Program-made: the position numbers and the translations under genes
In this document: positions 1,071 to 54,959 of the stretch, in pieces
Position numbering within the stretch: position 1 is the stretch's first letter
How the letters are laid out: each line of letters starts with the position of its first letter
Assembly: GCA_031280685.1 (NCBI GenBank)
Contig: JAITGM010000022.1
Span: 1,656 to 65,655 of the forward strand
From: Christensenellaceae bacterium
Lineage (GTDB): Bacteria > Bacillota > Clostridia > Christensenellales > UBA1750
Reading direction: 5' to 3'
DNA: 64,000 nucleotides
The notes under the pieces: model-generated
What the model was told of the DNA's origin: nothing
Database searches by the model: none
The model's input: the letters and a program-made list of their open reading frames with translations, nothing else

Positions 1071-1108
1071 GAAACCGAATAGGGCACAAGGATAAGGGGG
1101 CGAAAGGA

Positions 1109-2617: not shown

Positions 2618-2642
2618 GGTTTCATTCTTCATCATCTCTCGT

Positions 2643-2694
2643 CAACAATGGCGTTGCACGGGGCCGCAAGGCCCCTGGCAGCGCCTTTTTGTTT
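2643..2694 (+). promoter_or_regulatory. Putative ANTAR-type attenuator (hexaloop hairpin overlapping an intrinsic terminator) upstream of opp1; may also terminate the MATE transcript
   Basis: CAAC-AATGGC-GTTG (2643-2656) overlaps the terminator GGCGTTGC..GGGGCC-GCAA-GGCCCC..GCAGCGCC-TTTTTGTTT (2650-2694). Confidence 0.65.
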
Positions 2695-3636: not shown

Positions 3637-3653
3637 ACAAGGAGGTGCCCCCA

Positions 3654-4571
3654 ATGGAAACCCCCAAAAAGGGCTTTTGGTTTGAACCCATCGAGCCTGA
3701 GCTGCAAAACAGCGAGTTTATCGCCGTTGAGTCCAAGGGCTTTCTAGCCGAGGCCTCGGCGCGCTTCCTTCGCAACAAGCGCGCGGTGTTTGGCCTGGCC
3801 ATCCTCGTCTTCTTCGCCGCGTTGGCGCTGTTTGGGCCCTTCCTCGTGCCCTACAGCTACGATGGGCAGTCCCCCGCCTTCGTCAACGCGCCGCCTTCCG
3901 CCGCGCACTGGCTCGGGGCGGATAAGTTCGGCAGGGATCTCTTCGTCAGGCTCTGCTACGGCGCGAGAATCAGCCTGTTCATCGGCTTTGCCAGCGCGCT
4001 GATCAACCTGGTCATCGGCTGCGTGCTGGGCGGCATTTCGGGCTACGCGGGCGGCAAGGTCGATCTGATCATCATGCGCGCGGTCGATATCATCTATGCG
4101 GTGCCCTCGATGCTCTATGTCATCCTCATCATGATGGCGCTCGGGGCCAACACCAAGTCCATCCTCATCGGCATCTGCATCCCCGGCTGGATCGGCATGG
4201 CCAGGCAGGTGCGTGGGCAGATCATCTCATTGAAGCAGCAGGAATTTTCGATGGCCGCGCTGGTGCTCGGCGCGGGCGACGGCCGCATCCTCTTTAAGCA
4301 TCTGATGATCAACGCGATCGGCCCGATCATCGTGCAGCTAACCTTCCTGGTGCCGCAGGCGATCTTTACCGAGGCCTTTTTGAGCTTCGTGGGCGTGGGC
4401 ATCTCGGCGCCGCTGGCCTCCTGGGGCTCGATGTGCCAAAGCGCGCGGGAGTTCATCACCCTTTACCCCTTGCAGATGCTCTGGCCCACGCTCTCGATCT
4501 CGCTGACCATCTTCTCGCTGAACTTCCTGGGCGAGGGCATCGGCGACGCGCTGAACCCCCGCAGCAAATAA
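3654..4571 (+). CDS. oppC: Oligopeptide ABC transporter permease
   Basis: HWLGADKFGRDLF, GARISL, TEAFLSFVGVG, GDALNPR. GGAGG RBS at 3641-3645 favours ATG 3654. Confidence 0.93.
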   Translation: METPKKGFWFEPIEPELQNSEFIAVESKGFLAEASARFLRNKRAVFGLAILVFFAALALFGPFLVPYSYDGQSPAFVNAPPSAAHWLGADKFGRDLFVRLCYGARISLFIGFASALINLVIGCVLGGISGYAGGKVDLIIMRAVDIIYAVPSMLYVILIMMALGANTKSILIGICIPGWIGMARQVRGQIISLKQQEFSMAALVLGAGDGRILFKHLMINAIGPIIVQLTFLVPQAIFTEAFLSFVGVGISAPLASWGSMCQSAREFITLYPLQMLWPTLSISLTIFSLNFLGEGIGDALNPRSK

Positions 4572-4590
4572 CGAAAGGAGCGTTCCCTGC

Positions 4591-5685
4591 ATGAGCCTTT
4601 TAGAGATCAGGCACCTTAGCACCCACTTCCAGACCGCCCAGGGCACGGTGAAGGCCCTTCGCGATGTTTCTTTCAGGGTTTCGCCCGGCGAGGTTTTCGG
4701 GCTGGTCGGGGAATCCGGCTCGGGCAAGAGCGTGTCGATGCTCAGCCTGATGGGCCTGCTGGGGGAAAACAGCGTAATCCCCGAGGGGGAGATCCTCTTT
4801 GGCGGCCGCGATATTTCCCCCTCGGAGCTTAACACGAAGAAAAAACGCCGCGAGTACGAAAAAAAGATGCGCAAGCTGCGCGGCGGCGAGATCTCGATGA
4901 TCTTTCAGGACCCGATGACCTTCCTAAACCCCGTTTTGAAGATCGGCACCCAGATCTGCGAGGGCATTTTAGCCCATATCCACTGCTCGCGGGAGGAAGC
5001 GCGGATCCGCGCCATCGAGCTGATGCGCCAGGTGGGCATTCCCAGCCCCGAAAAGCGGCTGGAGCAGTACCCCTTCGAGTTCTCGGGCGGGATGCGGCAG
5101 CGCATCATCATCGCGGCCGCGCTGGCCTGCAAGCCCAAGCTGATCATCGCGGATGAACCCACCACCGCCCTTGACGTAACCGTGCAGGCGCAGATCCTGG
5201 AGCTGATCCAGACCCTCACCGATGAAAGCGGCGCCGCGGTCATCATGATTACCCACGATTTGGGGGTCGTGGCCACGCTTTGCGACCGGATCGCCATCCT
5301 CTATGCCGGGCGGGTGATGGAAGAGGGCCTGACGGAAGAGATCTTCTACAACCCCAAGCACCCCTACACCAGGGGCCTGCTGGGCAGCATCAACAATTCC
5401 GAAAAGGATGGCAACGAGCCCTTGCGGCCCATCCCCGGCACGCCGCCGGACCTGCTGAAGCTGCCCGCGGGCTGCGCCTTCATGCCCAGGTGCCAAGAAG
5501 CCCTGCGCATCTGCGCCGCGCAGGAGCCGCCCGAAAGCTCCTTTTCGGGCACGCATCGCTGCTTCTGCTGGCAAAACTCCATGGATGCTTCGCTCATCAC
5601 GGTTCCCACGCCGGCCGCGGCGAAAAGGGCCCCAAGCGAAGCCGAAGCCCAAAATTTGGCGCTGAGCGCCGCTCGGGAGGGATAA
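4591..5685 (+). CDS. oppD: Oligopeptide ABC transporter ATP-binding protein
   Basis: GESGSGKS, FSGGMRQR, IIADEPTTALD, HPYTRGLL, C-terminal Cys-rich domain. Confidence 0.95.
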   Translation: MSLLEIRHLSTHFQTAQGTVKALRDVSFRVSPGEVFGLVGESGSGKSVSMLSLMGLLGENSVIPEGEILFGGRDISPSELNTKKKRREYEKKMRKLRGGEISMIFQDPMTFLNPVLKIGTQICEGILAHIHCSREEARIRAIELMRQVGIPSPEKRLEQYPFEFSGGMRQRIIIAAALACKPKLIIADEPTTALDVTVQAQILELIQTLTDESGAAVIMITHDLGVVATLCDRIAILYAGRVMEEGLTEEIFYNPKHPYTRGLLGSINNSEKDGNEPLRPIPGTPPDLLKLPAGCAFMPRCQEALRICAAQEPPESSFSGTHRCFCWQNSMDASLITVPTPAAAKRAPSEAEAQNLALSAAREG

Positions 5686-5689
5686 GTCA

Positions 5690-6736
5690 GTGGCTGAAAA
5701 GCTCTTGGAGGTCACCGACCTGTGCAAGTATTTTGAGCTCAAGCGCGGCCTGAAAGGCACGCAGGTAGTCAAGGCCGTAGACCACGTTTCCTTCGAGATC
5801 GCAAAGGGCGAAACCCTGGGCCTTGTGGGCGAGAGCGGCTGCGGCAAGTCCAGTCTCGGGCGCACGCTGCTGCGCATCTACGAGCCCACGGCGGGCGAGA
5901 TCCTCTACTGCGGCAAGGATCTGGCCAGGCTCTCGCGCAGGGGGTTTTTGCCCTACCGCCGCAAAATCCAGATGATCTTTCAGGATCCCTACGCTTCGCT
6001 CAACCCGCGCCTGACCGTGGGCGAGATCATCGGCGAAGGCATGCAGATCCACAAGCTCTGCACGAAGGCCCAGGCCACGCGCCGCGTGCAGGAACTGCTC
6101 GAGCTGGTGGGCCTAAAGCCAGACCATATCCGCCGCTACCCGCATGAGTTCTCGGGCGGGCAGAGGCAGCGCATCTGCATCGCGCGGACGCTGAGCCTCG
6201 ACCCTGAGTTCATCGTCTGCGACGAACCGATCTCGGCGCTTGATGTTTCCATCCAGGCCCAGGTCATCAACCTTTTGGAACTCATCCAGAAGGAGCGCGG
6301 CATCAGCTACCTCTTCATCGCGCACGATTTGGGCATGGTCAAGCACATTTCACACCGCATCGGGGTGATGTATCTGGGCCACATGGTGGAAACCGGCCCC
6401 TCGAACGACGTTTACCACGACCCGCTCCACCCCTACACCCGCGCGCTGCTCTCGGCGGAGCCGATTCCGGACCCTAGGGCGGCCCACTTAAAGAAGCGCA
6501 TCCTCTTGGAGGGCGAGATCCCAAGCCCGATCCATCCGCCAAAGGGCTGCCCCTTCGTCACCCGCTGCCCCTATGCCATGGAGGTCTGCGCGGCCATTCA
6601 GCCGCCGAGCTTCGAGCTGGAAAACCGCAAGGTTTCCTGCTTCCTCTACGAGCAGTGGCGCATCCGCGAGCGCGGGGGCAAAGGCCTGGCCTCCCTTCCC
6701 CAAAAAGCCCCCGCCCAACCGCCCGCAAACGCCTAA
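5690..6736 (+). CDS. oppF: Oligopeptide ABC transporter ATP-binding protein
   Basis: GESGCGKS, FSGGQRQR, VCDEPISALD, HPYTRALLS, GCPFVTRC. Confidence 0.95.
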   Translation: MAEKLLEVTDLCKYFELKRGLKGTQVVKAVDHVSFEIAKGETLGLVGESGCGKSSLGRTLLRIYEPTAGEILYCGKDLARLSRRGFLPYRRKIQMIFQDPYASLNPRLTVGEIIGEGMQIHKLCTKAQATRRVQELLELVGLKPDHIRRYPHEFSGGQRQRICIARTLSLDPEFIVCDEPISALDVSIQAQVINLLELIQKERGISYLFIAHDLGMVKHISHRIGVMYLGHMVETGPSNDVYHDPLHPYTRALLSAEPIPDPRAAHLKKRILLEGEIPSPIHPPKGCPFVTRCPYAMEVCAAIQPPSFELENRKVSCFLYEQWRIRERGGKGLASLPQKAPAQPPANA

Positions 6737-6778
6737 AATAGGCGCGGAGAATAAACACTTACGAGGAGGTTTTCGAAA

Positions 6779-8440
6779 ATGACCCGTTTTGCAAAGCTTT
6801 TGAGCGTTTTTTTGATCCTTTCCCTGCTCGCGCTGAGCTTGGCCGCCTGCGGCGGCGCACAGGCCCCCGAAACAAGCCCGGCAGGCGCTGCCGCCTCCCC
6901 CTCGGGCGGAGGCGAAAGGGAGATCACCATACGCATGGAGCCTGAAACCGGCACCCTGGACCCCGCGGGCAATTCCTCGATCACATACTGGGGCTACGCG
7001 GCCTACGCGCTGGCTCCGCTGGTCGAGCTGGCGCCGGACGGCTCCTACGACTATATCATCGCCGAAAGCTGCGACATCAATGAAGACAATACGGTCTTCA
7101 CCTTCCACTTCCGCGAGGGCGCGGCCTGGTCCGACGGCAGCCCCTGCACCCCCGCGGACTACATCAACACCATGAAAAGGGCTCTTGATCCCGCCTGCGG
7201 CTCGGGCTATTCCGACTTCCTTTTTAAGGTCAAGAACGGCAAGGCCATCTATGAGGGCAGCGCCGACCCCGATACCTTAGGCGTTTCCGCGCCGGATGAC
7301 AAGACCCTGGTCATCACGCTGGAGGAACCCTGCCAGTACTTCCTCGACCTGCTCTTTCTGCCCGTTTTCTACCCTTCTCATGCCGAAAAGGCCACCGAAA
7401 CCAACGGCGACTGGTGCTTTGACCCGGCGCGCAGCCTGGCCAACGGCCCCTTCTACCTGGCCGAGTATGTGCCCGAGCAGTATATCCTGCTAAAGAAGAA
7501 CCCCTACTACGTGCAGAAGGAGCGCATCAGCCTGGATTCCATCAAGCTGCTCGCCATCGCGGATACCCAGTCGGCCATCAGCGCGTATAAGACCGGCGAG
7601 GTGGACGTGACCAGCGCGGACTACACGGTTCTGGCAGAGTATGAGGGCGAGGACGATCTGGTCATCCTGCCGAGCATGACGAGCTACTACACCCTGCTCA
7701 ACTGGGACCGCGAGCCCCTCAGCAACCCGCTGGTGCGCGAGGCGCTCTCTATCTCAATTGATCGCGACGCGATCGCGGCCTCGGCGGGCAAGGGCAGCTA
7801 CGAGCCCACGAGTTTCTTCGTCGCCAGGTACATGACCAGCAAGCTCGGCGGCGGCGAAGGCAAAAAGTGGGGCGAAGAGGTTGACCCCTTGCTGGCGCTG
7901 AATATCGAGCGGGCGCAGCAGCTCCTGGCTGAGGCCGGCTACCCGGGCGGCGAGGGCTTCCCGGAGCTGAGCTTCAAATACCCTGCCATGGAGGTCGAGG
8001 CTGCCATCGCGCAGTCGATGCAGGCGCAATGGAAGCAGAACCTGGGCATCACGGTCAACCTCGAAGCGCAGGAGTACCAGGTCAACATCTCGGACCGCAG
8101 GGCCGGCGATTTCGATATTTGCCGCATGCGCTGGACTGCGGACTATGCGGATCCGACGACCTTCCTGAGCATGTACACGGCCAGCGCCAGCTATAACGAC
8201 AGCGGCGTCGCCAGCGCGAAGTACGAGGAGCTTCTGGCCCTTTCCGAGCGCGAAGGCGAGCCCTCGAAGCGCTTCCAGCTCCTGCACGATACGGAAAAGG
8301 TTCTCGTCGCGGAGGAGTTCGCCTTCATCCCGACGCTGGCCGGCATTGGCGTGACGCTGCGCAGCCCAAAACTTGGAAATATCGTCATCAACCCCAGCCG
8401 CAACACCCCGTTCTATAAATACGCCACCCTCGCGGACTAA
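6779..8440 (+). CDS. oppA: Oligopeptide ABC transporter substrate-binding lipoprotein (family 5)
   Basis: Signal peptide with lipobox LAAC; TLDP, WSDGSP, NGPFYL, WTADYADP motifs. Confidence 0.92.
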   Translation: MTRFAKLLSVFLILSLLALSLAACGGAQAPETSPAGAAASPSGGGEREITIRMEPETGTLDPAGNSSITYWGYAAYALAPLVELAPDGSYDYIIAESCDINEDNTVFTFHFREGAAWSDGSPCTPADYINTMKRALDPACGSGYSDFLFKVKNGKAIYEGSADPDTLGVSAPDDKTLVITLEEPCQYFLDLLFLPVFYPSHAEKATETNGDWCFDPARSLANGPFYLAEYVPEQYILLKKNPYYVQKERISLDSIKLLAIADTQSAISAYKTGEVDVTSADYTVLAEYEGEDDLVILPSMTSYYTLLNWDREPLSNPLVREALSISIDRDAIAASAGKGSYEPTSFFVARYMTSKLGGGEGKKWGEEVDPLLALNIERAQQLLAEAGYPGGEGFPELSFKYPAMEVEAAIAQSMQAQWKQNLGITVNLEAQEYQVNISDRRAGDFDICRMRWTADYADPTTFLSMYTASASYNDSGVASAKYEELLALSEREGEPSKRFQLLHDTEKVLVAEEFAFIPTLAGIGVTLRSPKLGNIVINPSRNTPFYKYATLAD

Positions 8441-42361: not shown

Positions 42362-43957
42362 TTACTCCTCAAGCGTGGCCTGAATGAAGGCCCTAAAGAG
42401 CGGATGCGCCCGGTTGGGGCGGGATTTGAACTCGGGGTGGTATTGCACCCCTACGAAGAAGCGCTGCCCGGGCAGCTCAATGGCTTCGACCAGGCGGCCA
42501 TCGGGCGAAAGGCCGCTCAAGAGCATGCCGTGCTTGGTCATTTCCTCGCGGTAGTCGTTGTTGAACTCGTAGCGGTGGCGGTGGCGCTCGGCGATGAGGG
42601 GCAGGCCGTAGGCTTCCGCCATCCTGGAGCCAGGCGCGATGGCGCAGGGGTAGGCGCCCAGGCGCATGGTGCCGCCCTTGGGCAGGTTGCCCTGTTGGTC
42701 GGGCATCAGGTCGATCACGCTGCGCAGGCCGTTTTCGGCGAACTCGCTCGAGTTTGCGTCAGGCATGTTCAGCACGTGGCGGGCAAACTCGATCACCGCG
42801 ATTTGCAGCCCCAGGCAGATGCCCAGGTAGGGGGTTTTGTTTTCCCTCGCGTAGCGCGCCGCCAGGATCATCCCCTCGATGCCGCGCTCGCCAAAGCCGC
42901 CGGGCACCAGGATGCCATCGCAAGAGGCCAAAATCTCGCCCACGTTCGCCGGGCTGATCTCCTCCGCGTCGATCCAGTCGATCTCGACCGTGGCCGCGTT
43001 TTCGTAGCCCGCGTGCTGCAGCGCCTCCGCGACCGAAAGGTAGGCGTCGTGCAACTTGATGTACTTGCCCACCAAGGCGATTTTTACGCTCTTGCTGCGC
43101 GCGCGGATGCGGCCGAGCATGTCGTACCAATCGCTCAAATCGGGGCCCTTGTTGGTCAGGCCAAGCTCGCGCAGCACGTTGCGCGCAAGGCCGGCGTCTT
43201 CGAGCATGATGGGGCACTCATAGAGCACCGGCAGGGTGATGTTGGGAATGACGCAATCTGGCTTGACGTTGCAAAACAGCGAGATCTTGCGCACAATATC
43301 GTCCTGCAGGGGCTCATCGCAGCGGGCCACGATGATATCGGGGAAGATGCCCATGGCCTGCAGCTCCCTGACCGAATGCTGCGTGGGCTTGGATTTATAT
43401 TCGCCGCTCGATTTGATGTAGGGCACCAGGGTGACGTGGATGAAAAGGCAGTTATCGCGGCCATGCTCGATCGCCACCTGGCGGATTGCCTCTAAAAAGG
43501 GCTGGCTCTCGATATCGCCAATGGTGCCGCCCAGCTCGGTTAGAACGATCTCCGCACCCGATCGCTCGGCCACGGAATGGATAAAGCCCTTGATCTCGTT
43601 GGTGATGTGCGGAATGACCTGCACGGTTTCGCCCAGAAACTCTCCGCTTCTTTCCTTCGTGAGGACGTTCCAATAGACCTTGCCCATGGTCAGGTTCGAG
43701 AACGTGTTGAGGTCTTCATCGATGAAGCGCTCATAGTGGCCAAGGTCGAGGTCGGTTTCCGCGCCATCCTCGGTGACGAAGACTTCCCCGTGCTGATAAG
43801 GGCTCATGGTGCCCGGATCGACGTTGATGTAGGGGTCGAGCTTCTGCGCGCTGACCTTGAAGCCGCGGGCCTTGAGCAGCCTGCCCAGCGAAGCTGCCGT
43901 GATTCCCTTGCCCAGGCCCGAAACGACGCCGCCAGTTATGAAGATGTACTTCACCAT
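42362..43957 (-). CDS. pyrG: CTP synthase
   Basis: [34 protein letters not shown]; start at 43957 after GGAGG. Confidence 0.97.
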
Positions 43958-44013
43958 TACCCCGAGTCCTCCTTCGAAATTCCCTTGTTTAAAGATAAAG
44001 ATCAGGCAGAGCC

Positions 44014-44583
44014 CTAAATATACAAATCCAAAATGTCTTGCGCAGCCTGCCGCTTGGGGATGCGCTGATCCATGGCCTGTTTTTCGATGAAATGGTGGGC
44101 CTGCGGCTCGGTCAGGCCGCGCTGCTCGATCAGCAGCCATTTCGCGCGGTTTACCAGGCGCTGTTCGTCTAAGCGCTCGTACAACCTGCGGTTTTCTTCC
44201 CGCAGGGCGGCGATCTTGACGTGCGCGGCCAGCGCAAGGCGCACCGCCTGCAAAAAGTTTTGCCCGTTGATCGGCTTGCCCAGGGTCAGCACCCCGGAAT
44301 CGCCCATCGAGGCGGCCGCGCCGTCAAGCTCTTCCTGACGAACGAGCAAGAGCGAGGCAAGACCCAGAGTAGAAGCCGCAAAAAGGGCGAGCTCCGGGCC
44401 GTTTTCTCCGTTTAAAGGAGCGTTGACCACCACGATGGAAAAGGGCCTGTTCGTGAGCAGCCGCCTGGCCTCGCTGCCGGAGGCCGCGGTTTCGATGGAG
44501 GGAAGGCGAATCTCTTCCAGCAGCGAGCGAAGGGCTAGGCGCCCCTTTTCGCTGGAGGAAATCAGCAAAGCGCCGCCGGTCAA
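44014..44583 (-). CDS. ANTAR-domain antiterminator with a pseudo-receiver domain (NitR/AmiR-like)
   Basis: Receiver-like N-terminus with SS in place of the acidic pocket and Asn (IVVVNAPL) at the phospho-acceptor position; coiled coil; [29 protein letters not shown] motif. Confidence 0.9.
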
Positions 44584-44616
44584 AGTTGCACCCCCTTTCC
44601 GGTTCAGCGGGGAGGA

Positions 44617-45891
44617 TCAAATCACGGGGAAGTCGTTTTCGATCTCGAAGCTCTCGGCGTCGCCCGAGCGGAACATCCTCTCGTACTCGCTGAGCTTGTG
44701 CGAAAGGAAGGGCCCCGCAAAGCGCTGGGGCAGGGCTTTTTTAACCAGATCCGAGCGCCGCGCCAGGCTCACCGCCTCTTCCAGACTGGCCGGCAGGCTG
44801 CCCAGCACCTCGCCCTCAGGCTCAAGCGCAAGCCGCCTTTCGATGCCCTCGGCCCCAGCCTCGAGCAGCAGCGCAAAGCCGATGTAGGGGTTCATGGCAG
44901 GGTCTGGCGAGCGAAGCTCGATGTGGGCGCTCCCGCCGCCCGCCTGCGGCACGCGCAAGAGCTGCGCCAGGTTCTGGTTCGACCAGGCGATCTCGCCCGG
45001 GGCATCAAATCGCCCGAGGCGCGAATACGAACCCGGCAGTGGGTTTAAGAAGGCGCTGATCTCGGCCACGCGCGAGAGAATGCCCTGCATGAAGGCCTGG
45101 GCGACCTCGGTCAGGCCATTTTCGCCCTTGATGACGTTCTCGCCGTCCTTTTCCAGGGCGATGGAAACGTGCAGGCCGCTGCCACTCTGCTCCTTGAGCG
45201 GCTTGGGGAGGAGCGACGCGTAAAGCCCAAAGCTTGAAGCCACGGTTTTGGCCACGTTCGTGAAGGCGACGTAAGCGTCCGCCATCTTGATCGGGCTTCT
45301 GCGGTGCAGGTCGATCTCGTTTTGCCCGGGGCCGGACTCGTGCAGCGAGGAGGAAGGCCTAATGCCCATCTGCTCAAGATTCAGGCAGATCTCACGGCGG
45401 ACGTTTTCGCCCTTATCGAGCGGAGCGAAGTCCAGATAGCCGGCCTGGTCGTGCGGCGCGAGGATGGGCTGGCCCTGATCGCCCAAATTGAAGAGGTAAA
45501 ACTCGCACTCCAGGGCGATCTTTGCCGTGTAGCCAAGCGCGAAAAGGCGCTTTACGCTGCTCTTGAGGATGCGCCTGCCGTCGAGTTCGAAGGGCTCGCC
45601 GCTGGAATAGAGGATGTCGCAATACACCCTGGCGACCCTGCCGCCCTGCTGCGGGCGCCAGGGAAGCAGCGCCATGGTTGAAAGATCCGGCATCAAGATG
45701 AGGTCGGATCCCTTGGTATCGACAAAGCCAAAGATGCCCGAGGCATCGAAGCTCTTGCCGAAGGCCGCCACGTTCTCGAACTCGTCTGCCATGATGGAGA
45801 TGCTCTTGAGCCTGCCGAACAGATCACAGAAAGCCAGTCGGATGAACTTCACGTCGTTTTCGCCCAAAAATGCGCCGGTGTCTTCGGTCAT
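44617..45891 (-). CDS. Type I (GSI-alpha) glutamine synthetase-like protein with altered catalytic motifs
   Basis: VKFIRLAFCD, LECEFYLF, HESGPGQNEID, PKP..GSGLH and IELRSPD are present, but it has FDAP and QNLAQLLRVP where active enzymes have YEAP and NRSPLIRIP. Confidence 0.88.
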   Translation of the reverse strand: MTEDTGAFLGENDVKFIRLAFCDLFGRLKSISIMADEFENVAAFGKSFDASGIFGFVDTKGSDLILMPDLSTMALLPWRPQQGGRVARVYCDILYSSGEPFELDGRRILKSSVKRLFALGYTAKIALECEFYLFNLGDQGQPILAPHDQAGYLDFAPLDKGENVRREICLNLEQMGIRPSSSLHESGPGQNEIDLHRRSPIKMADAYVAFTNVAKTVASSFGLYASLLPKPLKEQSGSGLHVSIALEKDGENVIKGENGLTEVAQAFMQGILSRVAEISAFLNPLPGSYSRLGRFDAPGEIAWSNQNLAQLLRVPQAGGGSAHIELRSPDPAMNPYIGFALLLEAGAEGIERRLALEPEGEVLGSLPASLEEAVSLARRSDLVKKALPQRFAGPFLSHKLSEYERMFRSGDAESFEIENDFPVI

Positions 45892-45994
45892 GGCCTATTC
45901 CTCCTTCATGGCTCGTAAAATAGAAGGCCCCGCGGCGCCTTTGGCGGAGGAGCGGGGCGATGAGCGCTGTGCTTTGGGCCAAGGCCCAGTCTAT

Positions 45995-46025
45995 TTTAAA
46001 AGATGCGGCGAAAAGTTGCAAGCGG
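45995..46025 (-). promoter_or_regulatory. Internal promoter for the GS-like/ANTAR/pyrG/dapL unit
   Basis: Minus strand TTGCAA, 17 bp, TAAAAT; coordinates are approximate. Confidence 0.55.
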
Positions 46026-46064
46026 CTTTTGCGGCCGGGCCGTAAAAAGCTGCTTTTTGAAGGC

Positions 46065-46781
46065 CTAATAAACGGTATAGAGCCGCTTATAGGGGTTTTT
46101 GGAGTTCGGGCTGAGCAGGGTGAACTCCCCTTGCAAAATCGCGCCCGCATCGCCGCCGAAGGCAGCGCAAAAGGCCTCGACATCGCCGCGAATCAGCTCC
46201 AGGTCGGCCCTTTCGGCGGATCTAGCCTCGACCTGGCTGGGCAGCACCGCGCTGCCCAGGCCGCCGCGCACATAGATGCGGCCGCCGTGCATCCCCGTGG
46301 CGCAAAAATCGCCCACCGGGGTTGCACCGGCGAGGTTCAGCACCACGATGCGCCCGCCCGCCTGGTACTCGCCCAGGAAGGAGCCTGCCCTGCCGCCCAT
46401 GACGATGACGGGCACCTTCTCTCTATATTCCTTCATGTGGATGCCGCAGCGGTAACCCACGTTGCCCTTGATCAGAATGCGCCCGCCGCGCATCGCGTAG
46501 CCCACGGCATCGCCGCAAGAGCCGTTGACCACGATCTCGCCATCGTTCATCGTGTCGCCCACGGCATCCTGCGCGTTGCCGCCCACGAGGATGCGCGCGC
46601 CGTTCATGTAGGCGCCCAGCGCGTTGCCGGGCACGCCCTGCAGCCTGAGCGTCTTGCCCGAAAGCCCGGCGCCGATGTAGCGCTGCCCCGTGACCCCGGT
46701 CACGGTCAGCTCCGCCGCGGAAGCCGCCTTAATCTCTTCGTTTAAGGCCCTGAAGACCTTGCCGCTTGCCTGAATCGTCAT
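46065..46781 (-). CDS. Glutamate synthase GXGXG (C-terminal beta-helix) domain protein
   Basis: Repeated G-x-G-x-G units: GQRYIGAG, GNALGAYMNG, GDAVGYAMRGG, GSFLGEYQAGG. Confidence 0.9.
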   Translation of the reverse strand: MTIQASGKVFRALNEEIKAASAAELTVTGVTGQRYIGAGLSGKTLRLQGVPGNALGAYMNGARILVGGNAQDAVGDTMNDGEIVVNGSCGDAVGYAMRGGRILIKGNVGYRCGIHMKEYREKVPVIVMGGRAGSFLGEYQAGGRIVVLNLAGATPVGDFCATGMHGGRIYVRGGLGSAVLPSQVEARSAERADLELIRGDVEAFCAAFGGDAGAILQGEFTLLSPNSKNPYKRLYTVY

Positions 46782-48016
46782 GCTTTGTTCCCTCCAGCCA
46801 GCATTTTCGCCCTCTCGGCCTTGGAAAAGGCCATGAGCTGGGGCTTTTGCGCGATGAGCCCAAAGTCGATGGTGCTCAAGGGCGTCTGGTCGCGAATCAA
46901 GGACGTGTAGATGCCCGCGCGGCGCACATCGCCCAGCAAAAGGTAGCCCACGAGCCTGTCATCCTTGATAAAGAGCTTCTTAACGCCGCCCTCGTTGGGC
47001 AAAATAAGGCATTCGCCCTGGTAGCTGCCCGCCGTGATGAGATGCAGGCCGAAAAAGCCGCCGGCGTTCATGGGGAAGGCGTTTTCGAAGTTTGAAGCCA
47101 GGCCCGCCATGTTCTGCCCGGCGGTATAGCCCTGGGTGTAGGCATTGGGCAGCACCGCCAGGACTTTTTCGCTGCCGCCGTCACTGACATCGTGGCTCAG
47201 GGTCAAATCGCCTGCCGCGTAGACGCCGGGCAGGCTGGTCTGCATGTGGGAATCGACCTTCACGCCGCGCGCGATCTCGGCGCCCGCAGCCTGAAGCAAC
47301 GCCGTGTTCGGCCGCACGCCGACCGCCAGCACCAGCACGTCGAATTCGACGGTCTCGCCGCTCTTGAGTTTTGCACTGTTGCCCGTGAAGCGCTCGACCG
47401 AATCGCCTAAGTAAAAACGGCAGTTGTTTTCTTCCATTTTGGCCTGCACGATGGCCGCGCAGTCCTCATCGAGCACGGCGGGCAACACCCGCGGCATCAT
47501 CTCGACGATGGAAACCGAGGCCACGCGCTCGGCGATGCCCTCGGCGCACTTGGTGCCGATGAGCCCCGCGCCGATGATGAGCACGCGGCTTTTTTCGTTG
47601 ATCAGGCTCTCGAGCCGCAGGGCATCGTCAAGGTTTAGAAAGCCGGCCTTTTTTTCGACGCTCTCTAGCCCCTCCATCGGCGGCACGAAGGGCACCGAAC
47701 CCGTCGCCACAAGAAGCTTATCGTAGGGGATTTCCTCGCCGGCCGCAGTGCGAACCGTCTTTTGGGCCGCGTCGATAGATAAAACCTCGGTGTTCAGGCG
47801 CAGTTCCGCCCCATGGTCGGCAAAGAAGCTCTCGGGCCTGTAGGAGATGTGCTCTAGGTCCGTCTTGCCTTCTAAATAGTACGAGATCAGCGGCCTGCCG
47901 TAGGGCCTGTGCCCTTCTTTTGAAAGCAGGGTGATCTGCCCTTCCGCATCCTGGGAGCGGATGCCCTCCACGCAGGCAATGCCCGCGTGCGAGGCCCCGA
48001 TGATGAGATACTTCAC
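46778..48016 (-). CDS. NAD(P)/FAD-dependent oxidoreductase (glutamate synthase electron-donor subunit candidate)
   Basis: IIGASHAG, LLVATGS, IIGAGLIG, TSLPGVYAAGD. Confidence 0.9.
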   Translation of the reverse strand: MKYLIIGASHAGIACVEGIRSQDAEGQITLLSKEGHRPYGRPLISYYLEGKTDLEHISYRPESFFADHGAELRLNTEVLSIDAAQKTVRTAAGEEIPYDKLLVATGSVPFVPPMEGLESVEKKAGFLNLDDALRLESLINEKSRVLIIGAGLIGTKCAEGIAERVASVSIVEMMPRVLPAVLDEDCAAIVQAKMEENNCRFYLGDSVERFTGNSAKLKSGETVEFDVLVLAVGVRPNTALLQAAGAEIARGVKVDSHMQTSLPGVYAAGDLTLSHDVSDGGSEKVLAVLPNAYTQGYTAGQNMAGLASNFENAFPMNAGGFFGLHLITAGSYQGECLILPNEGGVKKLFIKDDRLVGYLLLGDVRRAGIYTSLIRDQTPLSTIDFGLIAQKPQLMAFSKAERAKMLAGGNKA

Positions 48017-48459
48017 GCAAACGCCTCCCTGTCTTCAAAGATGATGGCGCGGTTTGGGCAGCCTTCCACGCAGGCCGGGATGCCCTGATGGTTTTGCATG
48101 CACAGGTCGCATTTTTGCACCGCAGTGCCATCCGAGGGCATCACGGCGCCGAAGGGGCAGGCCATGATGCAGGAATAGCAGCCCACGCACTTTTCCTGAT
48201 CGATGGTCACCTGGCCGTTTTCGAACTTGAGCGCCCCCGAAATGCAGGCCTTTTGGCAGAAGGGATCGTCACAATGGCGGCAGGAAACCGCAAAGGAGAT
48301 GCCGCCACCCTCCTCGATGCGGATGCGGGGATTGATCTCGCGATCCTTGAGCGCCTTGGCCATATCGTCCCTGCCGGACGTGGCGTTGGCAAAGGCGCAG
48401 TTGTACTCGCATAAACGGCAGCCCAGGCACCACTTTTCATCCACATAGATGCGTTTCAT
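48013..48459 (-). CDS. 4Fe-4S dicluster ferredoxin-like protein
   Basis: CLGCRLCEYNC, CRHCDDPFCQKAC, CVGCYSCIMACP, CDLC..CVEGCP; start at 48459. Confidence 0.92.
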   Translation of the reverse strand: MKRIYVDEKWCLGCRLCEYNCAFANATSGRDDMAKALKDREINPRIRIEEGGGISFAVSCRHCDDPFCQKACISGALKFENGQVTIDQEKCVGCYSCIMACPFGAVMPSDGTAVQKCDLCMQNHQGIPACVEGCPNRAIIFEDREAFA

Positions 48460-48463
48460 CGCT

Positions 48464-49738
48464 TTACCCCCTCTTGATGTAGGCAGACCGCTCGGGCCCG
48501 ACGGAAACATACTCGATCGGCACGCCGATCTTCTCTTCCACGAAGGCGATATAGTCGCGCGCAGCCCGGGGAAGCTCCTCCTCGCTGCGGCAGGCGGAAA
48601 TGTCTTCCTTCCAGCCGGGCAGGGTTCGCAAAATCGGCTTGGCGCGGGTCAATTTGGCGCCGTAGGGGAAATCCGTGACGCGTTCGCCGTCGATCTCATA
48701 GGCCACGCAGACCCGAATCTCGTCCATGAACGAGAGCACGTCGAGCAGGGTCAGCGCGATGGAATCCGCGCCCTGCACCCTGGCGCCATAGGCCGTGGCC
48801 ACCGCGTCAAAGGCGCCCACGCGCCTTGGCCTGCCCGTGGCCGCGCCATATTCGTGCCCGGCCTCGCGCAGGGCATGCGCCTCTTCGCCGAAGAACTCGG
48901 CCACGAAGGGGCCTTCGCCCACGCAGCTTGAATAGGCCTTGGCCACGCCCAGCGTTTTCTCTACGCGCAGGTTGGGCGCGCCCGCCCCGATTGGCGCGTA
49001 GGCGGCCAGGGTCTGCGAAGACGTGGTGTAGGGGTAGATGCCAAAATCGATGTCGCGCAGGGTGCCTAGCTGGGCCTCAAAAAGGATCTCCTTGCCCTGG
49101 CTTGCTGCGTCGGTCAGGAAGCGGCCCGCGTCGATGACGTGCTTTTGAAGGGGCAGGGCGTAGGTTTTGAGCCAATCCAGGGTTTCGTCAAGGGAGATCC
49201 CCTCCGCGCCATACACGCCGGACACGCTGAGGTTCTTCCACTCGATCAAGCCCTTCATGGTCTTTACAAGGGCATCCCAATCGCCCAAGTCGCCGAAGCG
49301 AATGGCCTTTTTCATGTATTTATCACCATAGACGTAGGCGATGCCACGCCTGGTGGAGCCGAACTTGGCGTCGCCCAGACGGTCTTCCTCCAAGCCGTCC
49401 ATCAGGACGTGATAGGGCAGGCAGATCACCGCGCGGTCGCTGATTTTTAGGTTGTTTTCGTCGATGGTCACGCCCTTTTCGCGCAGGGACGCGATTTCGC
49501 CGGCGAGGTGCCGGGCATCCACCACCATGCCGGTGCCAAGCAGGTTGACGCAGGCTGGGTTGAAGATGCCGCAAGGGATGAGGTTCAGGGCGAACTTGCC
49601 CAGGGGGTTGACCACGGTATGGCCCGCGTTGTTGCCGCCCTGGTAGCGCACCACGATATCCGCCTGCTGGGCGTGCAGATCGACCATCCTGCCCTTGCCT
49701 TCATCGCCCCAGTTCACCCCGACGATTGCCTTCAGCAT
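48464..49738 (-). CDS. purA: Adenylosuccinate synthetase
   Basis: WGDEGKG, GGNNAGHT, GSTRRGI, GIYPYTTSS, EYGAATGRPRRVG, VSVGPER. Confidence 0.96.
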   Translation of the reverse strand: MLKAIVGVNWGDEGKGRMVDLHAQQADIVVRYQGGNNAGHTVVNPLGKFALNLIPCGIFNPACVNLLGTGMVVDARHLAGEIASLREKGVTIDENNLKISDRAVICLPYHVLMDGLEEDRLGDAKFGSTRRGIAYVYGDKYMKKAIRFGDLGDWDALVKTMKGLIEWKNLSVSGVYGAEGISLDETLDWLKTYALPLQKHVIDAGRFLTDAASQGKEILFEAQLGTLRDIDFGIYPYTTSSQTLAAYAPIGAGAPNLRVEKTLGVAKAYSSCVGEGPFVAEFFGEEAHALREAGHEYGAATGRPRRVGAFDAVATAYGARVQGADSIALTLLDVLSFMDEIRVCVAYEIDGERVTDFPYGAKLTRAKPILRTLPGWKEDISACRSEEELPRAARDYIAFVEEKIGVPIEYVSVGPERSAYIKRG

Positions 49739-49765
49739 GAATTTCTCCCCCCTTCAATTGAGTTG

Positions 49766-51274
49766 TTATTCGCCCGCGTGCTTAATGCCCAGGATCTCAA
49801 GCTCCTTTTCGCTCAGGCCCACGCCGCGGAGCATCAAGCGGTTGCCGCGCAGGGATTCGATTGCGTTGATGCCCATGCCGCCCATCATTTCCATGATCTC
49901 GTGCTCCCAGGCGTGGACGAGGTTGACCAGGCGCTGGTAGCCGATATCGGGATTCAGGCGGCGAACCAGATCGGCCCGCTGGGTGGCGATGCCCCAGTTG
50001 CACTTGCCCACCTGGCAGGCACGGCAGAGGTGGCAGCCAAGGGCGATGAGCGCGGCCGAAGCGATATACACAGCGTCGGCCCCCAGGGCGATGGCTTTGA
50101 TCACATCGGCGCTTGATCTGACCGAGCCGCCGATGACCAGGGAGATATTGTTGCGAATGCCCTCGTCGCGCAGGCGCTTATCGACGGCGGCCAGCGCAAG
50201 CTCGATGGGGATGCCCACGTTATCGCGGATGCGGGTAGGCGCCGCGCCGGTCCCGCCGCGGAAGCCGTCGATGGCGATAATGTCGGCCCCACTCCTTGCG
50301 ATGCCGGAGGCGATGGCCGCCACGTTATGCACCGCCGCGATCTTGACGATGACCGGCTTTTCGTAGTTCGTGGCCTCTTTTAAGGAGTGCACGAGCTGGT
50401 GCAGATCCTCGATGGAATAAATATCGTGGTGCGGCGCCGGGGAAATCGCGTCGGTTCCTTCCGGAATCATTCTGGTGCGCGAAACTTCGGCGTTGATCTT
50501 TTCGCCGGGGAGATGCCCGCCAATGCCGGGCTTTGCGCCCTGGCCCATCTTGATTTCGATGGCGGCTGCGGCGTTTAAATACTCGGGGTGCACGCCGAAG
50601 CGACCGGAGGCCACCTGCACGATGGTGTTTTTATCGTAGCGGTAAAAGTCCTGATGCAGGCCGCCTTCGCCGGTGTTATAGAAGGTGCCCAGGGCCTCCG
50701 CCGCCCGCGCCAGGGACTCGTGCGCGTTGTAGGAAATGGAGCCGTAGCTCATGGCCGAAAAGAGGATGGGCACATTGAGCTTGAGCTGCGGGGCCGTCTT
50801 GGTGATGATCTTGCCATTGGGGCCGCGCTTGATCTCAACGCTCTTCTTGCCAAGGAAGGTGACGCCCTCCATCGGCTCGCGCAGCGGGTCGATGGAGGGG
50901 TTGGTGACCTGGGAGGCGTTGATGAGGATCTTATCCCAATAGACGGGGAAATCCTCGGGGTTGCCCATGGAAGAAAGCAGCACGCCGCCGGTCGCTGCCT
51001 GGCGGTAGATCTCCTCAATCTTGTTTTGCTGCCAGTTGTGGTTCTTTTTAAAGGCGTTGGTGGTCGGCTCGATCTTCAGCGCGCGGGTAGGGCAGAGCGA
51101 AACGCAACGCTGGCAATTGACGCAGTTATCGTCCTGGCTGACCATCATTTTCAGCTCCTGGTCGTAGTGGTGCACCTCGTTGGCGCACTGCTGCTGGCAG
51201 GCGCGGCAGCTTATGCAGCGATTTTGGTTGCGGGCGACCTCGTAGGCAGGGTAGATATAGTGAATGCCTGGCAT
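49766..51274 (-). CDS. Archaeal-type glutamate synthase FMN-binding subunit with N-terminal 2x[4Fe-4S]
   Basis: MSYGSIS, NTGEGG, QVASGRFG, EIKMGQGAKPGIGGHLPGEK, ISPAPHHDIYSIEDL, CHLCRACQVGKCNWGIATQ. Confidence 0.95.
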   Translation of the reverse strand: MPGIHYIYPAYEVARNQNRCISCRACQQQCANEVHHYDQELKMMVSQDDNCVNCQRCVSLCPTRALKIEPTTNAFKKNHNWQQNKIEEIYRQAATGGVLLSSMGNPEDFPVYWDKILINASQVTNPSIDPLREPMEGVTFLGKKSVEIKRGPNGKIITKTAPQLKLNVPILFSAMSYGSISYNAHESLARAAEALGTFYNTGEGGLHQDFYRYDKNTIVQVASGRFGVHPEYLNAAAAIEIKMGQGAKPGIGGHLPGEKINAEVSRTRMIPEGTDAISPAPHHDIYSIEDLHQLVHSLKEATNYEKPVIVKIAAVHNVAAIASGIARSGADIIAIDGFRGGTGAAPTRIRDNVGIPIELALAAVDKRLRDEGIRNNISLVIGGSVRSSADVIKAIALGADAVYIASAALIALGCHLCRACQVGKCNWGIATQRADLVRRLNPDIGYQRLVNLVHAWEHEIMEMMGGMGINAIESLRGNRLMLRGVGLSEKELEILGIKHAGE

Positions 51275-51277
51275 GAT

Positions 51278-52366
51278 CTAGTTCCCCCTTTGGCCTGTGG
51301 TGATGATGACCGGCTCGCCGCCCACCGGCGACCAGATTTTTACGTCCTCCTCAAGCACGCGGATGGCGCACTCCTCGCTAGAGATGTAGGTGCGGCTCTT
51401 TCCCTCGCCCACGACCATGGAACGGAGCTTGAGCCTGTCGTTCAGGGCCATCAGGCCGCCGCTGAAGCCGTAAAGGATCGAAAACGGCCCGGTGATGAGC
51501 AGGCTTGGGAACATCGAGCGCAAATAGGTCAGTTCCTCGCGCTCTTCCTTCTCCATCAGCTCGATTTTTTCCCAAAAGGGCGCCGCGATGACCTTTGAAG
51601 CCTCGGTGAGCGTCAATCCCTGCCGCCTAGTTAAGAAATCGAGGATGTAGGTGATGACCTCGGTGTCTGTCAGCAAGGTGCAGGCATAGCCGAACATTTC
51701 GATAAAGCGGCGGTTGGCGTCGTAGGACGAAATCTCGCCGTTGTGAACGATGGTAGAATCGAGCAGGGCAAAGGGGTGCGCGCCGCCCCACCAGCCCGGG
51801 GTGTTGGTCGGGTAGCGGCCGTGCGCCGTCCAGACCAGGCCCTCGTATTCGTCGAGCCTGTAGAATTCGCCCACGTCTTCCGGGTAGCCCACCGCCTTGA
51901 ACACGCCCATGTTCTTGCCCGATGAAAAGACGTAGGCGCCCTCGATCGTGCCGTTGATGGCAAAGGTCGCCCGCACGACGAACTCCTTTTCATCAAGCTG
52001 GGAAACGGCGAGCTTATCGGGCCTGGGCTTTGCGAAATAGCGCCAAATCAGCGGCTCCGAAGTGATGTTCTTGTGCTTTTTGGTAGGGATGACGCCGCTT
52101 TCCTGCACCTCGAAATGATCGAGCAGAAACCTTTCGCCGCGAAGCCTGGCCGCCTCATCGTCAAAGATGAGGTGCAGGGCGTATTCGTCCCTGTGCTTTG
52201 GGTAGATGCCGTAGCCCGCAAAGCCGCCGCCCAGGCCGTTCGATCTGTCGTGCATCGTGGCGATGGAGCGGATCATCTCGCCTCCGCTGATGGGCCTGCC
52301 GTCGTGCGAAACGACGCCCGAAATGGCACAGCCCGCAGGGATGCGCTCTTGCCCCTCTCTGATCAT
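51278..52366 (-). CDS. Class II glutamine amidotransferase (glutamate synthase amidotransferase subunit)
   Basis: Propeptide then N-terminal nucleophile GCAISG; HGRYPTN, AHPF, HNGEI, TDTE, DRLKLR. AAGGAGG RBS fixes the start at 52366. Confidence 0.92.
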   Translation of the reverse strand: MIREGQERIPAGCAISGVVSHDGRPISGGEMIRSIATMHDRSNGLGGGFAGYGIYPKHRDEYALHLIFDDEAARLRGERFLLDHFEVQESGVIPTKKHKNITSEPLIWRYFAKPRPDKLAVSQLDEKEFVVRATFAINGTIEGAYVFSSGKNMGVFKAVGYPEDVGEFYRLDEYEGLVWTAHGRYPTNTPGWWGGAHPFALLDSTIVHNGEISSYDANRRFIEMFGYACTLLTDTEVITYILDFLTRRQGLTLTEASKVIAAPFWEKIELMEKEEREELTYLRSMFPSLLITGPFSILYGFSGGLMALNDRLKLRSMVVGEGKSRTYISSEECAIRVLEEDVKIWSPVGGEPVIITTGQRGN

Positions 52367-52592
52367 GGAACACCCTCCTTGAGTTGACTTGGGGGAAAGG
52401 GCCCGCGCCCTTGCCCGTACCGGGTTGTTTAAAGGAGACGCGGCCTCGTTTTTTCTTGATTCGGGAATCCGCCGCCGGCGAACTGCCCCGAGAAAGGGGC
52501 TTGCCTTGCATTTTGGGCTGTTTGGCCATAAAAAGCGTTTCCGGGAAGGAAAGAAGGCCGAAAGCCGGAATTCGCGACTGAAACCCAAAAGT

Positions 52593-52621: not shown

Positions 52622-52653
52622 TGTGTGAGGAAGCGGCTCTCTGTTATCTTTCT

Positions 52654-52693: not shown

Positions 52694-52727
52694 GTTGTTA
52701 TTTCCATATTAACCGCCAAACTGGGGG

Positions 52728-52756: not shown

Positions 52757-52765
52757 GCTTTTAAC

Positions 52766-52823
52766 CAGCAAAGACGCTGAAGCATGGCCTTGGTCTGTGC
52801 CTTTCAGGTCTTTTTTGTTTTTT
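52766..52823 (+). promoter_or_regulatory. Putative ANTAR-type attenuator in the type III glnA leader
   Basis: CAGC-AAAGAC-GCTG (52766-52779) overlaps the terminator stem 52773-52810, which is followed by TTTTTTGTTTTTT. Confidence 0.75.
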
Positions 52824-52865: not shown

Positions 52866-54959
52866 ATGACGAAAGTCCCCGAGTTGTTCGGCAGCCTGGT
52901 CTTCGATGAATCGACGATGCGCGAGCTACTGCCCAAGGATGCCTATAGGGCTCTGAAGGCCGCGATCGCCCAAAGCAAACCCCTCACCCCCGATGTAGCG
53001 AACGTAGTCGCCGCCGCGATGAAGAGCTGGGCCCTTGAAAAGGGCGCGACCCACTTCACCCACTGGTTCCAGCCGATGACCGGCATCACCGCCGAAAAGC
53101 ACGATTCCTTCATCTCCCCCACGGGCGATGGCCGCGTCATCATGGAGTTTTCGGGCAAGGAACTCATCAAGGGCGAGCCCGACGCCTCCTCCTTCCCCTC
53201 GGGCGGCCTGCGCGCCACCTTCGAGGCCCGCGGCTACACCGCCTGGGATCCTTCCTCCTTTGCCTTCATCAAGGATAACACGCTCTGCATCCCCACAGCG
53301 TTCTGCTCCTATTCGGGCGAGGCGCTCGATAAGAAGACCCCCCTCCTGCGCTCGATGGAGGCGGTTTCCAGGCAGGCCGTGCGCGTCTTGCACCTACTGG
53401 GCAAGACCCAGGTTAAAAACGTCAAGTCCACCGTTGGCGCCGAGCAGGAATACTTCCTGATCGACAAGGAAGTCTACCTCAAGCGCAAGGATCTCATCTA
53501 CACCGGCCGCACGCTCTTCGGCGCGGAGCCGCCCAAGGGCCAGCAGCTCGAAGACCACTACTTCGGCGCGATCAAACCCCGCGTGGCCGCCTTCATGCAG
53601 GAGCTGGACGAGGAGCTTTGGAAGCTCGGCGTGCCCTCGAAGACCCGCCATAACGAGGTCGCCCCGGCCCAGCACGAGATGGCCCCGGTCTTTAACACCA
53701 CCAACGTCGCCACAGACCAAAATCAGCTCGCTATGGAGCTGATGAAAAAGGTCGCGGCACGCCACGGTATGGTCTGCCTCCTGCACGAAAAGCCCTTCGC
53801 GGGCGTCAACGGCTCGGGCAAGCACAACAACTGGTCCCTTTCGACCGACAGCGGCGAAAACCTCCTCGATCCGGGCTCTACCCCCTATGAAAACGCTCAA
53901 TTCCTGCTCTTTTTGGCAGCGGTGATCAAGGCCGTGGATGACCACCAGGATCTTTTGCGCGTTTCCGTCGCCTCGGCCGGCAACGACCACCGCCTGGGCG
54001 CCAACGAAGCGCCGCCCGCCATCGTGTCGATGTTCCTGGGCGACGAGCTCACCGGCATTCTCGAAGCCATCGAGCAGGGCTCGGGCTACAACTCGAAGGC
54101 CTCCTCAGAAATCGCCATCGGCGCCGATGTGCTGCCCACCTTCCCGCGCGACAACACCGACCGCAACCGCACTTCGCCCTTTGCCTTCACCGGCAACAAG
54201 TTCGAGTTCCGCATGCTGGGCTCCTCGTTCTCGGTGGCGGACTCCAACACCGTGCTCAACACCATCGTGGCCGAGGCGCTTTCGCTCTTTGCGGCCGATC
54301 TTGAAAAGGCTTCCGACATCAACGCGGCCATCGCGGACATTGTGGCCCGCACGATGAAGGAGCATAAGCGCATCATTTTCAACGGCAATAACTACGCGGC
54401 CGAATGGGTTGTGGAGGCAGAAAAGCGCGGCCTGCTCAACCTGCGCTCCACGCCCGAAGCCCTCAAGCGCTTCGCGACCGAGCAAAACGCCAAGCTGTTC
54501 GAAAAGCATGGCGTGCTCAGCCGCACGGAGCTGCACTCCAGGCAGGAAATCTTCTTCGAAGGCTATTCGAAGATCATCGCCATCGAGGCTAGCTGCCTGG
54601 TTTCCATCACCCGCAAGCGCTTGCTGCCCGCAGTTCTTGAGTATTCCAAGGAGCTGGCGGCCACCGCCTTGGCCAAAAAGCAGCTCTCGCAAGCCATCGA
54701 CACCGGCGTAGAGGAAAGGCAGGTCACCAAGCTTTCGGCCCTGGCCACCAAGCTGGACGAGAAGCTGAACCAGCTCATCACCGCCATTGCAGACAGCGAA
54801 AAGCTCAGCGACGGCGCCGAGCTTGCGGACTTTTCGCACGATAAGGTCTTTGCCTCGATGGAGGCTCTCCGCATCGTGATCGACGAGGTCGAGCTGATCG
54901 TGGCCAAGAAATATTGGCCGGTGCCCACCTACGGCGATCTGCTTTTCAGCGTGCAGTAA
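52866..54959 (+). CDS. glnA: Glutamine synthetase type III
   Basis: About 697 aa; [89 protein letters not shown]; GGAGG RBS. Confidence 0.96.

Follow-up and report, generated by a model that had tools for sequence, protein, structure and literature searches.

A glutamine synthetase-like protein as candidate nitrogen sensor of a pseudo-receiver ANTAR antiterminator in a Christensenellaceae bacterium

How does an antiterminator whose receiver domain has apparently lost its phosphorylation site learn about the nitrogen status of the cell? The question is raised by two adjacent genes in a 64,000-nucleotide stretch of DNA from a Christensenellaceae bacterium (GenBank assembly GCA_031280685.1, contig JAITGM010000022.1, positions 1,656 to 65,655), called here the window. 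The host genome measures 2.24 Mb and is 97% complete. The first gene encodes a protein that resembles type I glutamine synthetase (GS), designated 'GSI-like', and the second a protein with an RNA-binding ANTAR domain. A first-pass annotation, made from the sequence alone, had proposed that the GSI-like protein is a glutamine-sensing pseudoenzyme which sequesters or releases the ANTAR protein, and that a type III GS (GSIII) nearby does the catalysis. We find that the pair is a member of a widespread clostridial module, glnA-nitR. That its GSI-like protein is the nitrogen sensor gating the antiterminator, with GSIII as the catalyst, is a reading towards which we lean tentatively, with slightly less than even confidence.

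The GSI-like open reading frame (ORF) matched the Pfam families Gln-synt_N (81.8 bits) and Gln-synt_C (252.8 bits). Its closest solved relatives were GSI-alpha chains (E = 7.7e-88), and with the GlnA equivalog model TIGR00653 it scored 297.6 bits, under the cut-off of 429.15. Its motifs were compared by alignment to the solved GSI-alpha chains (7TDP and others), and the altered motifs and retained metal ligands listed by the first-pass annotation were all found at the coordinates given. RFDAP aligns opposite YEAP, which places Asp296 at the position of the flap Glu. NQNLAQLLRVP aligns opposite SASNRSPMIRIP, which places Leu308 (codon CTG, 44968-44970) at the first Arg, a residue of the ATP site. 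The metal-ligand motifs ECEF, HE..GQNEID, H241 and IELR are retained, as are the glutamate-side arginines R291 and R327, equivalent to R321 and R359. A loop of 13 residues is absent, at a place where relatives read ..P.NLNLY... Twelve core catalytic positions were then scored (D50', E129, E131, E212, E220, H269, R321, E327, R339, R344, E357 and R359, in a numbering that we take to be that of the Salmonella GS). The protein retains 10 of them, including all six metal ligands, the two changes being those of E327 to Asp296 and of R339 to Leu308. Judged by this alignment, the GSI-alpha catalytic set is incomplete in the GSI-like protein.

A possible sequencing error at the CTG codon had been allowed for earlier. 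The codon for Leu308 is real, because the orthologue in a sister genome (G001, 92% identical in protein) has the same CTG among neighbouring codons that differ synonymously, and because the probable source run, when assembled anew, gave an identical sequence across 44000-46100 with a word depth of 15 (the sample is the same, hence not independent, and the comparison is of contigs, not raw reads). The gene is also under purifying selection: between the host and G001, the ratio of nonsynonymous to synonymous substitution rates (dN/dS) is 0.084 at a dS of 0.52.

The ANTAR gene starts 33 nt past the stop codon of the GSI-like gene, as had been described, and is the only ANTAR gene of the genome. 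Its product scored 60.6 bits with the Pfam ANTAR model (cut-off 27.3) and 22.1 bits with Response_reg, a weak match under the cut-off of 30.2. A profile match over the full length was obtained with Rv1626 (E = 2.7e-25), and a profile match also with AmiR (E = 2.9e-14). In the full-length profile alignment to the Rv1626 receiver, Ser-Ser-Ser occupies the place of the acidic pocket and Asn54 (44422-44424) that of the phospho-accepting Asp, in agreement with the earlier description, and the Lys is kept. The acidic pocket and acceptor Asp of phosphorylated response regulators of the EutV or Rv1626 type are both missing. We compared 107 members of the family, 27 from relatives of the host and 80 from named genomes: the phosphorylation site was Asn in 98, Asp in seven and Ser in two, the pocket consisted of Ser, Gly, Ala or Thr in nearly all, and the Lys was kept. 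The alignments strongly support the view that the receiver of the ANTAR protein cannot be phosphorylated and that the whole family consists of pseudo-receivers, a term that the first-pass annotation had already applied to this protein. With a trait shared by the whole family, there is no reason to expect a cognate kinase; the genome has 15 HATPase_c matches, all of them outside the contig, and the window is free of histidine kinases, as had been noted.

At least 595 loci encoding relatives of the ANTAR protein were found in a scan of one genome per species. Those listed come from Oscillospiraceae, Ruminococcaceae, Lachnospiraceae, Clostridiaceae, Sedimentibacter, Peptococcaceae and Defluviitalea, and from a few Spirochaete and Bacteroidota metagenome-assembled genomes (MAGs). 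The two genes are closely linked. Among the named loci that could be judged, 72 of 79 have a GS gene directly upstream of the ANTAR gene on the same strand. The ANTAR gene was found in 38 of 61 relatives of the host, with a GSI-type gene adjoining it in 31 of these 38. Conversely, a GS gene of the type described below was accompanied by an adjoining ANTAR gene in all the 27 genomes that carry one. The host pair has the co-location expected of NitR-type antiterminators, with the ANTAR gene directly 3' of a type I GS gene and close to glutamate synthase (GOGAT) genes. No longer, fused GS-ANTAR protein was detected at E <= 1e-10, which is weak evidence. One Oscillospiraceae MAG has a 301-aa ORF (L077:2653-3555, plus strand) made of a GS N-terminal remnant, without the D50 motif, and a receiver-ANTAR part; the catalytic domain is absent, and the ORF resembles the leftover of a deletion more than a designed fusion.

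In a tree built quickly with FastTree, the GS proteins linked to ANTAR genes form one clade, separate from canonical GSI, with a support of 100. Of the 95 forks of this tree 37 are unresolved, and counts of changes on it are rough minima. Core residues were scored in 96 members. Reading frames were guided by tblastn in six high-GC loci, one row (L023) was left out as its N-terminal part lies in another frame, and unlinked GSI matches in G013 and G018 were not included. All 12 residues were present in 35 proteins; one was lost in 32, two in 8, three in 6, four in 12 and five in 3, so that at least one was lost in 61 of the 96. The flap Glu was kept in 46 and replaced in 50, by Lys (20), Asp (7), Ser (6), Gly (6) or other residues. 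Metal ligands were lost as well: E129 in 24 proteins (to K, A or G), E212 in 12, H269 in 11 and E357 in 4. R321 and R359, on the other hand, were invariant (96/96), and E131 and E220 were each kept in 95. By parsimony, the flap state changed at least 12 times on the tree, and the intact or degenerate state at least 15 times. The median root-to-tip path was 1.19 for degenerate and 0.80 for intact members, the rows not being independent. Among the relatives of the host, 22 of the 26 clade members scored were without at least one core residue, whereas the unlinked GSI paralogues of related genomes were all intact (19/19). Two GS-like genes adjoining ANTAR genes, L178 in G003 (389 aa) and L183 in G057 (413 aa), are extremely degenerate, with several metal ligands replaced or missing.

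These comparisons support the idea that catalysis is dispensable in the clade and that the protein is nonetheless kept. The glutamate and metal pocket is retained and the ammonium and ATP side repeatedly lost, the gene is under selection, and it is never found apart from the antiterminator, which argues for a job tied to the antiterminator. Recurrent loss, intact unlinked paralogues, linkage and purifying selection together support a regulatory, sensor-like role of the ANTAR-linked GS. The first-pass annotation had suggested aligning these homologues and relating the loss of residues to the presence of GSIII. The alignment bore out the loss of the flap Glu; as for GSIII, each of the 27 relatives with a clade GS gene has it, which leaves the clade without the contrast that such a correlation requires.

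We identified a candidate form of RNA target, a hairpin called here P1, with a stem of 4 to 6 bp, a C-G closing pair and a hexaloop A-N-N-G-R-Y, located at the 5' ends of leaders. In the window it occurs ahead of the GSIII gene and of a peptide ABC transporter operon. Elsewhere in the host genome the motif precedes a gene for an AmtB-P-II fusion (C30:120708-120753) and a second AmtB-P-II gene (C48:2362-2414), the latter being found with 29.7 bits by a model not trained on that site. These two fusions and a weak third match (32.6 bits) make up the P-II matches of the genome. In the GSIII leader, P1 comes right after a promoter-like site. In each of the four leaders its loop and 3' arm double as the 5' arm of a far stronger intrinsic terminator, so that a protein holding P1 would prevent termination.

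P1 followed by a terminator was found upstream of GSIII in the host. Of an initial set of 20 relatives with an ANTAR gene, 18 had the same arrangement; in both exceptions the GSIII gene lies inside an operon. All five further ANTAR-bearing relatives had it too, two of them judged by eye. Among 12 relatives without the ANTAR gene, the motif was encountered as one clear and one degenerate case. In neither of two genomes of the same genus was an ANTAR gene found: in G010 (L138) both the hairpin and the terminator of the GSIII leader are kept, and in G004 (L136) the loop of the hairpin is degenerate and the terminator remains. The regulator may have been lost recently in these genomes, or their assemblies may be incomplete.

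The pairing itself is conserved. P1 pairs were possible in 94.8% of the cells of the alignment, compared to 16 to 50% when the partner columns were slid, and four of the five pairs vary on both sides (for instance, CAGC/GCTG versus AAGGC/GTCTT). RNAalifold predicted a terminator which begins at the first base of the P1 loop and has 16 pairs, with compensatory changes at 10. In all 23 sequences the minimum free energy was lower for the terminator (-18 to -37 kcal/mol) than for P1 by itself (-3 to -8). As the terminator is far stronger than P1, the hairpin would need a protein in order to win.

ANTAR RNA matches have been listed before genes for P-II, ammonium transporters, GS and GOGAT, and in Alkaliphilus also ahead of an operon of GS and ANTAR genes (Ramesh et al. 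2012, PMC3369931). The leaders found here resemble the ANTAR target described in that paper in the A1 and G4 of the hexaloop, in the overlap with an intrinsic terminator and in the position upstream of nitrogen genes; given the shared loop bases and terminator overlap, the target part of the system is of a known kind. It is probable, judging from these leaders, that the targets of the ANTAR protein are the short hairpins ahead of GSIII, the two amtB-PII genes and the peptide ABC operon.

Rfam at gathering thresholds gave no match in the window. A scan of the genome for dual hairpins returned 127 matches, mostly spurious, and a looser scan for single hairpins returned 60. A covariance model, R1, also matches plain terminators, such as one at C9:20969 that has no P1 3' arm, so that R1 alone cannot define the regulon. 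In the host genome at C9:1620-1690 (plus strand), straddling the first bases of the window, a strong terminator overlaps another hairpin, TTATC-AACGGG-GATAA. The genes 3' of it (window 45-2617), for a D-2-hydroxyacid dehydrogenase and a MatE protein, are candidate regulon members only.

Taken together, the pair would act as a NitR-type nitrogen control module. The ANTAR protein, by holding P1, would block termination and thereby turn nitrogen scavenging on. Its signal input would be the co-transcribed GSI-like protein, which keeps the glutamate- and metal-binding residues and has a weakened ammonium and ATP site. This protein might read the glutamine or glutamate state, and the nucleotide state, and, through direct contact, hold or free the ANTAR protein. 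When glutamine is high, the latter would be sequestered and the terminators would act; when glutamine is low, it would be freed. We infer this direction of the switch from the content of the regulon, which consists of scavenging genes. GSIII would carry the bulk of catalysis. The genome has only two GS-family genes, the GSI-like gene and GSIII, and the latter is likely the working GS of the host; all three of its domains were matched, at the distance from the pair that the first-pass annotation had given. Extended to the clade, the proposal is that ANTAR-linked GlnA proteins are GS-derived sensors of glutamine or nucleotides, more than half of them pseudoenzymes, that gate pseudo-receiver antiterminators by direct binding. 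This broader statement is possible, and we hold it with a little more reserve than the one on the host pair.

Several observations weigh against this proposal. Direct, glutamine-dependent binding of GS and ANTAR protein is an inference. The prediction of a complex of two GSI-like chains (residues 8-410) and the ANTAR protein, with a 23-row alignment for each, gave it no support (score 0.12, mark 0.32), which counts neither for nor against. As noted, 35 of the 96 ANTAR-linked GS proteins are fully intact, so that the clade is not uniformly one of pseudoenzymes, and the kin sampled are not independent. SGSGLH of the host protein, which aligns opposite NGSGMH, had been taken as a sign of degeneracy; judged across the alignment it is instead the norm of the clade, the N264 position being Ser in 50 of 96 proteins and Asn in only four. 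Eight genomes have a relative of the ANTAR protein and no GSI-like gene that we could find: the relatives G007, G058 and G054, and all five named genomes in which the ANTAR gene has no GS neighbour (the completeness of these five is unknown). The first three keep the GSIII leader motif. A GS partner is thus not obligatory, and an antiterminator of this family can receive its signal without one. On the RNA side, the published ANTAR target consists of paired hairpins, the second of which overlaps the terminator (Ramesh et al. 2012), whereas a single conserved hairpin, itself overlapped, was seen in our leaders. No P1-type hairpin was found in the GOGAT leader.

The catalytic state of the host protein is a further point of this kind, and it leads to the most serious alternative. 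With only two of the 12 core residues changed, one of them conservatively from Glu to Asp, and with every metal ligand kept, the host protein may well have residual or altered ligase activity, and the label 'pseudoenzyme' is not established for it. The initial proposal is supported in part: in its favour are the receiver that cannot be phosphorylated, the losses across the clade, the constant presence of GSIII, the count of two GS-family genes and a single ANTAR gene in the host, and the reality of the Leu codon. The GSI-like protein could then be a plain enzyme, either a GS of low or specialised activity or a gamma-glutamyl ligase, since other amines are known as substrates of ligation by GSI paralogues (PMC13740247). 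The ANTAR protein would sense alone, for example through a metabolite bound in the pseudo-receiver, and adjacency would reflect nothing more than autoregulation, as has been described for glnA-nitR. The intact members of the clade and the eight genomes lacking a GSI-like gene, three of them with the leader motif, fit this explanation. The loss of metal ligands in many clade members does not, as it points to a loss of catalysis rather than to a change of substrate. Nor does a plain enzyme account for losses so diverse, of at least 12 to 15 origins, in a gene that stays intact, under purifying selection and beside ANTAR in 27 of 27 genomes, when unlinked GSI genes show none. We regard this alternative as a real contender that is nevertheless rather doubtful.

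It is unlikely, in our estimate, that control of the antiterminator lies with a different sensor of nitrogen, either the P-II domains fused to AmtB or GSIII, and that the GSI-like protein is a bystander or minor modulator. Both AmtB-P-II fusion genes carry the leader motif, GSIII accompanies the clade GS in all 27 genomes that have one, and in two named loci the ANTAR gene is divergent next to GSIII with no GSI present. However, no third gene is conserved with the pair, the clusters of downstream genes numbering 13, 10, 8 and 6 among 64 loci, and the tight linkage of GS and ANTAR genes, with no clade GS ever found without ANTAR, is left unexplained. Finally, a redundant copy decaying to a pseudogene now that GSIII does the work would fit the two changed catalytic residues, the deleted loop and the faster evolution of degenerate members, but it is contradicted by the selection data, the intact reading frame, the invariant R321 and R359 and the retention of orthologues across the order and well beyond, and can be considered highly improbable.

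The sensor reading remains the one that we prefer. Coordinates of the pair and its surroundings are collected in Table 1.

Table 1. Positions of the gene pair, the candidate RNA elements and neighbouring genes in the window
Feature	Position	Strand	Remarks
GSI-like gene	44617..45891	-	424 aa, ATG start
NitR-type antiterminator gene	44014..44583	-	189 aa, TTG start; pseudo-receiver, coiled coil and ANTAR domain
GSIII gene (type III glutamine synthetase)	52866..54959	+	697 aa; GSIII_N, Gln-synt_C, Gln-synt_C-ter; about 7 kb from the pair
GSIII leader	52763..52818	+	P1 CAGC-AAAGAC-GCTG at 52766-52779, then terminator and T-run; proposed ANTAR target
Second P1-plus-terminator leader, CAAC-AATGGC-GTTG	2640..2692	+	ahead of the peptide ABC operon
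Five-gene ABC transporter operon	2722..8440	+	two permeases, two ATPases, family-5 solute-binding protein; downstream of the 2640..2692 leader
Terminator-like hairpin GCCCCGC...GCGGGGC, then CTTCTATTTT	45917..45958	-	GSI-like leader; apex C-AAAGGC-G; conserved in G001
Promoter-like site TTGCAA-17-TAAAAT	45993..46021	-	in the 173-nt gap upstream of the GSI-like gene; consensus match only
Split glutamate synthase cluster	46065..52370	-	upstream of the GSI-like gene; GATase_2, Glu_synthase with Fer4, purA, Fer4, Pyr_redox_2, GXGXG
pyrG (CTP synthase, glutamine amidotransferase)	42362..43955	-	about 58 nt past the ANTAR stop

The leader of the GSI-like gene has a terminator-like hairpin of its own, and no P1-type hairpin was found there as an alternative structure. 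Within the glutamate synthase cluster lies purA, for adenylosuccinate synthetase (48464-49738, minus strand), which overlaps the next, ferredoxin-like ORF by 47 nt. On the other side of the pair, no terminator-like site was found between the ANTAR gene and pyrG, whose true start is probably the ATG at 43955. Among the 64 named loci, the gene 3' of the ANTAR gene was carA-like in 13, pyrG in 10, purF-like in 8 and dapF in 6; it is often a glutamine amidotransferase. In the ABC transporter operon, the last gene was identified by its Pfam match (SBP_bac_5) and the other four from their translations. Between the divergent promoter-like sites of the GOGAT and GSIII genes, a perfect 18-bp inverted repeat, TGCAAATCTGCAGGATGG ... 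CCATCCTGCAGATTTGCA, is found at 52653-52694 (plus strand). Several relatives also have its core, ATCCTGCA, ahead of their GSIII promoter (loci L034, L035, L036, L039, L043 and L047). The repeat may be the operator of a DNA-binding regulator, and thus a second layer of control.

Nitrogen sensing by NitR-type regulators has been an open question since their first description. In Clostridium saccharobutylicum, NitR of the glnA-nitR pair is an antiterminator, and a 2018 review calls its mechanism 'not fully understood' (PMC6316151). The word glutamine does not occur in a 2025 review of RNA-binding antiterminators (PMC12591593). In the literature covered, which did not include two papers that may bear on the point (Stutz et al. 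2007; Rydzak et al. 2017), we found no proposal of binding between GS and an ANTAR protein, or of a GS pseudoenzyme as partner of one. The present comparison provides a concrete candidate for the sensor and specifies a set of probable RNA targets. Hundreds of Clostridia and some other anaerobes have members of the clade, and the family is frequent among Clostridia of the gut and rumen and among cellulolytic ones. Clostridium thermocellum, where nitrogen deregulation alters product yields, is a member.

Among known systems, the closest are glnA-nitR of C. saccharobutylicum and C. acetobutylicum and the genes Clo1313_2030-2031 of C. thermocellum. There too, glutamate synthase genes adjoin a type I GS gene that has a receiver-ANTAR gene directly after it, and nitrogen control is by antitermination (PMC6316151, PMC4676874, PMC9888227); in C. 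thermocellum the cluster consists of Clo1313_2030 (ANTAR), 2031 (GSI) and 2032-2036 (GOGAT) (PMC4676874, PMC9888227). In what these sources describe, however, the GS is treated as a working enzyme, whereas the host copy is without the flap Glu and one Arg of the ATP site. AmiC-AmiR of Pseudomonas and NasS-NasT provide the principle of an unphosphorylated receiver-like ANTAR protein that is sequestered by a ligand-binding partner encoded beside it (PMC12591593, PMC3795266). The partner in those systems has the fold of a periplasmic binding protein; here it would have the GS fold, a candidate to which adjacency and co-occurrence point. The Bacillus GS, a GSI-alpha enzyme, signals glutamine excess to TnrA and GlnR by direct binding (PMC9249791, PMC6316151). 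That GS is fully active, and its partners are DNA-binding repressors of the MerR type with a C-terminal GS-binding tail, whereas in the host pair the partner is predicted to bind RNA, and its GS-fold companion is a paralogue in its own right and degenerate in part. If the sensor reading is true, a case of a pseudoenzyme would be added to the glutamine synthetase family, and the question of how NitR-type regulators sense nitrogen would have its answer. The GS fold would then have a third route, at the RNA level, by which to report nitrogen status, one that links the principle of GS-TnrA/GlnR with that of AmiC-AmiR.

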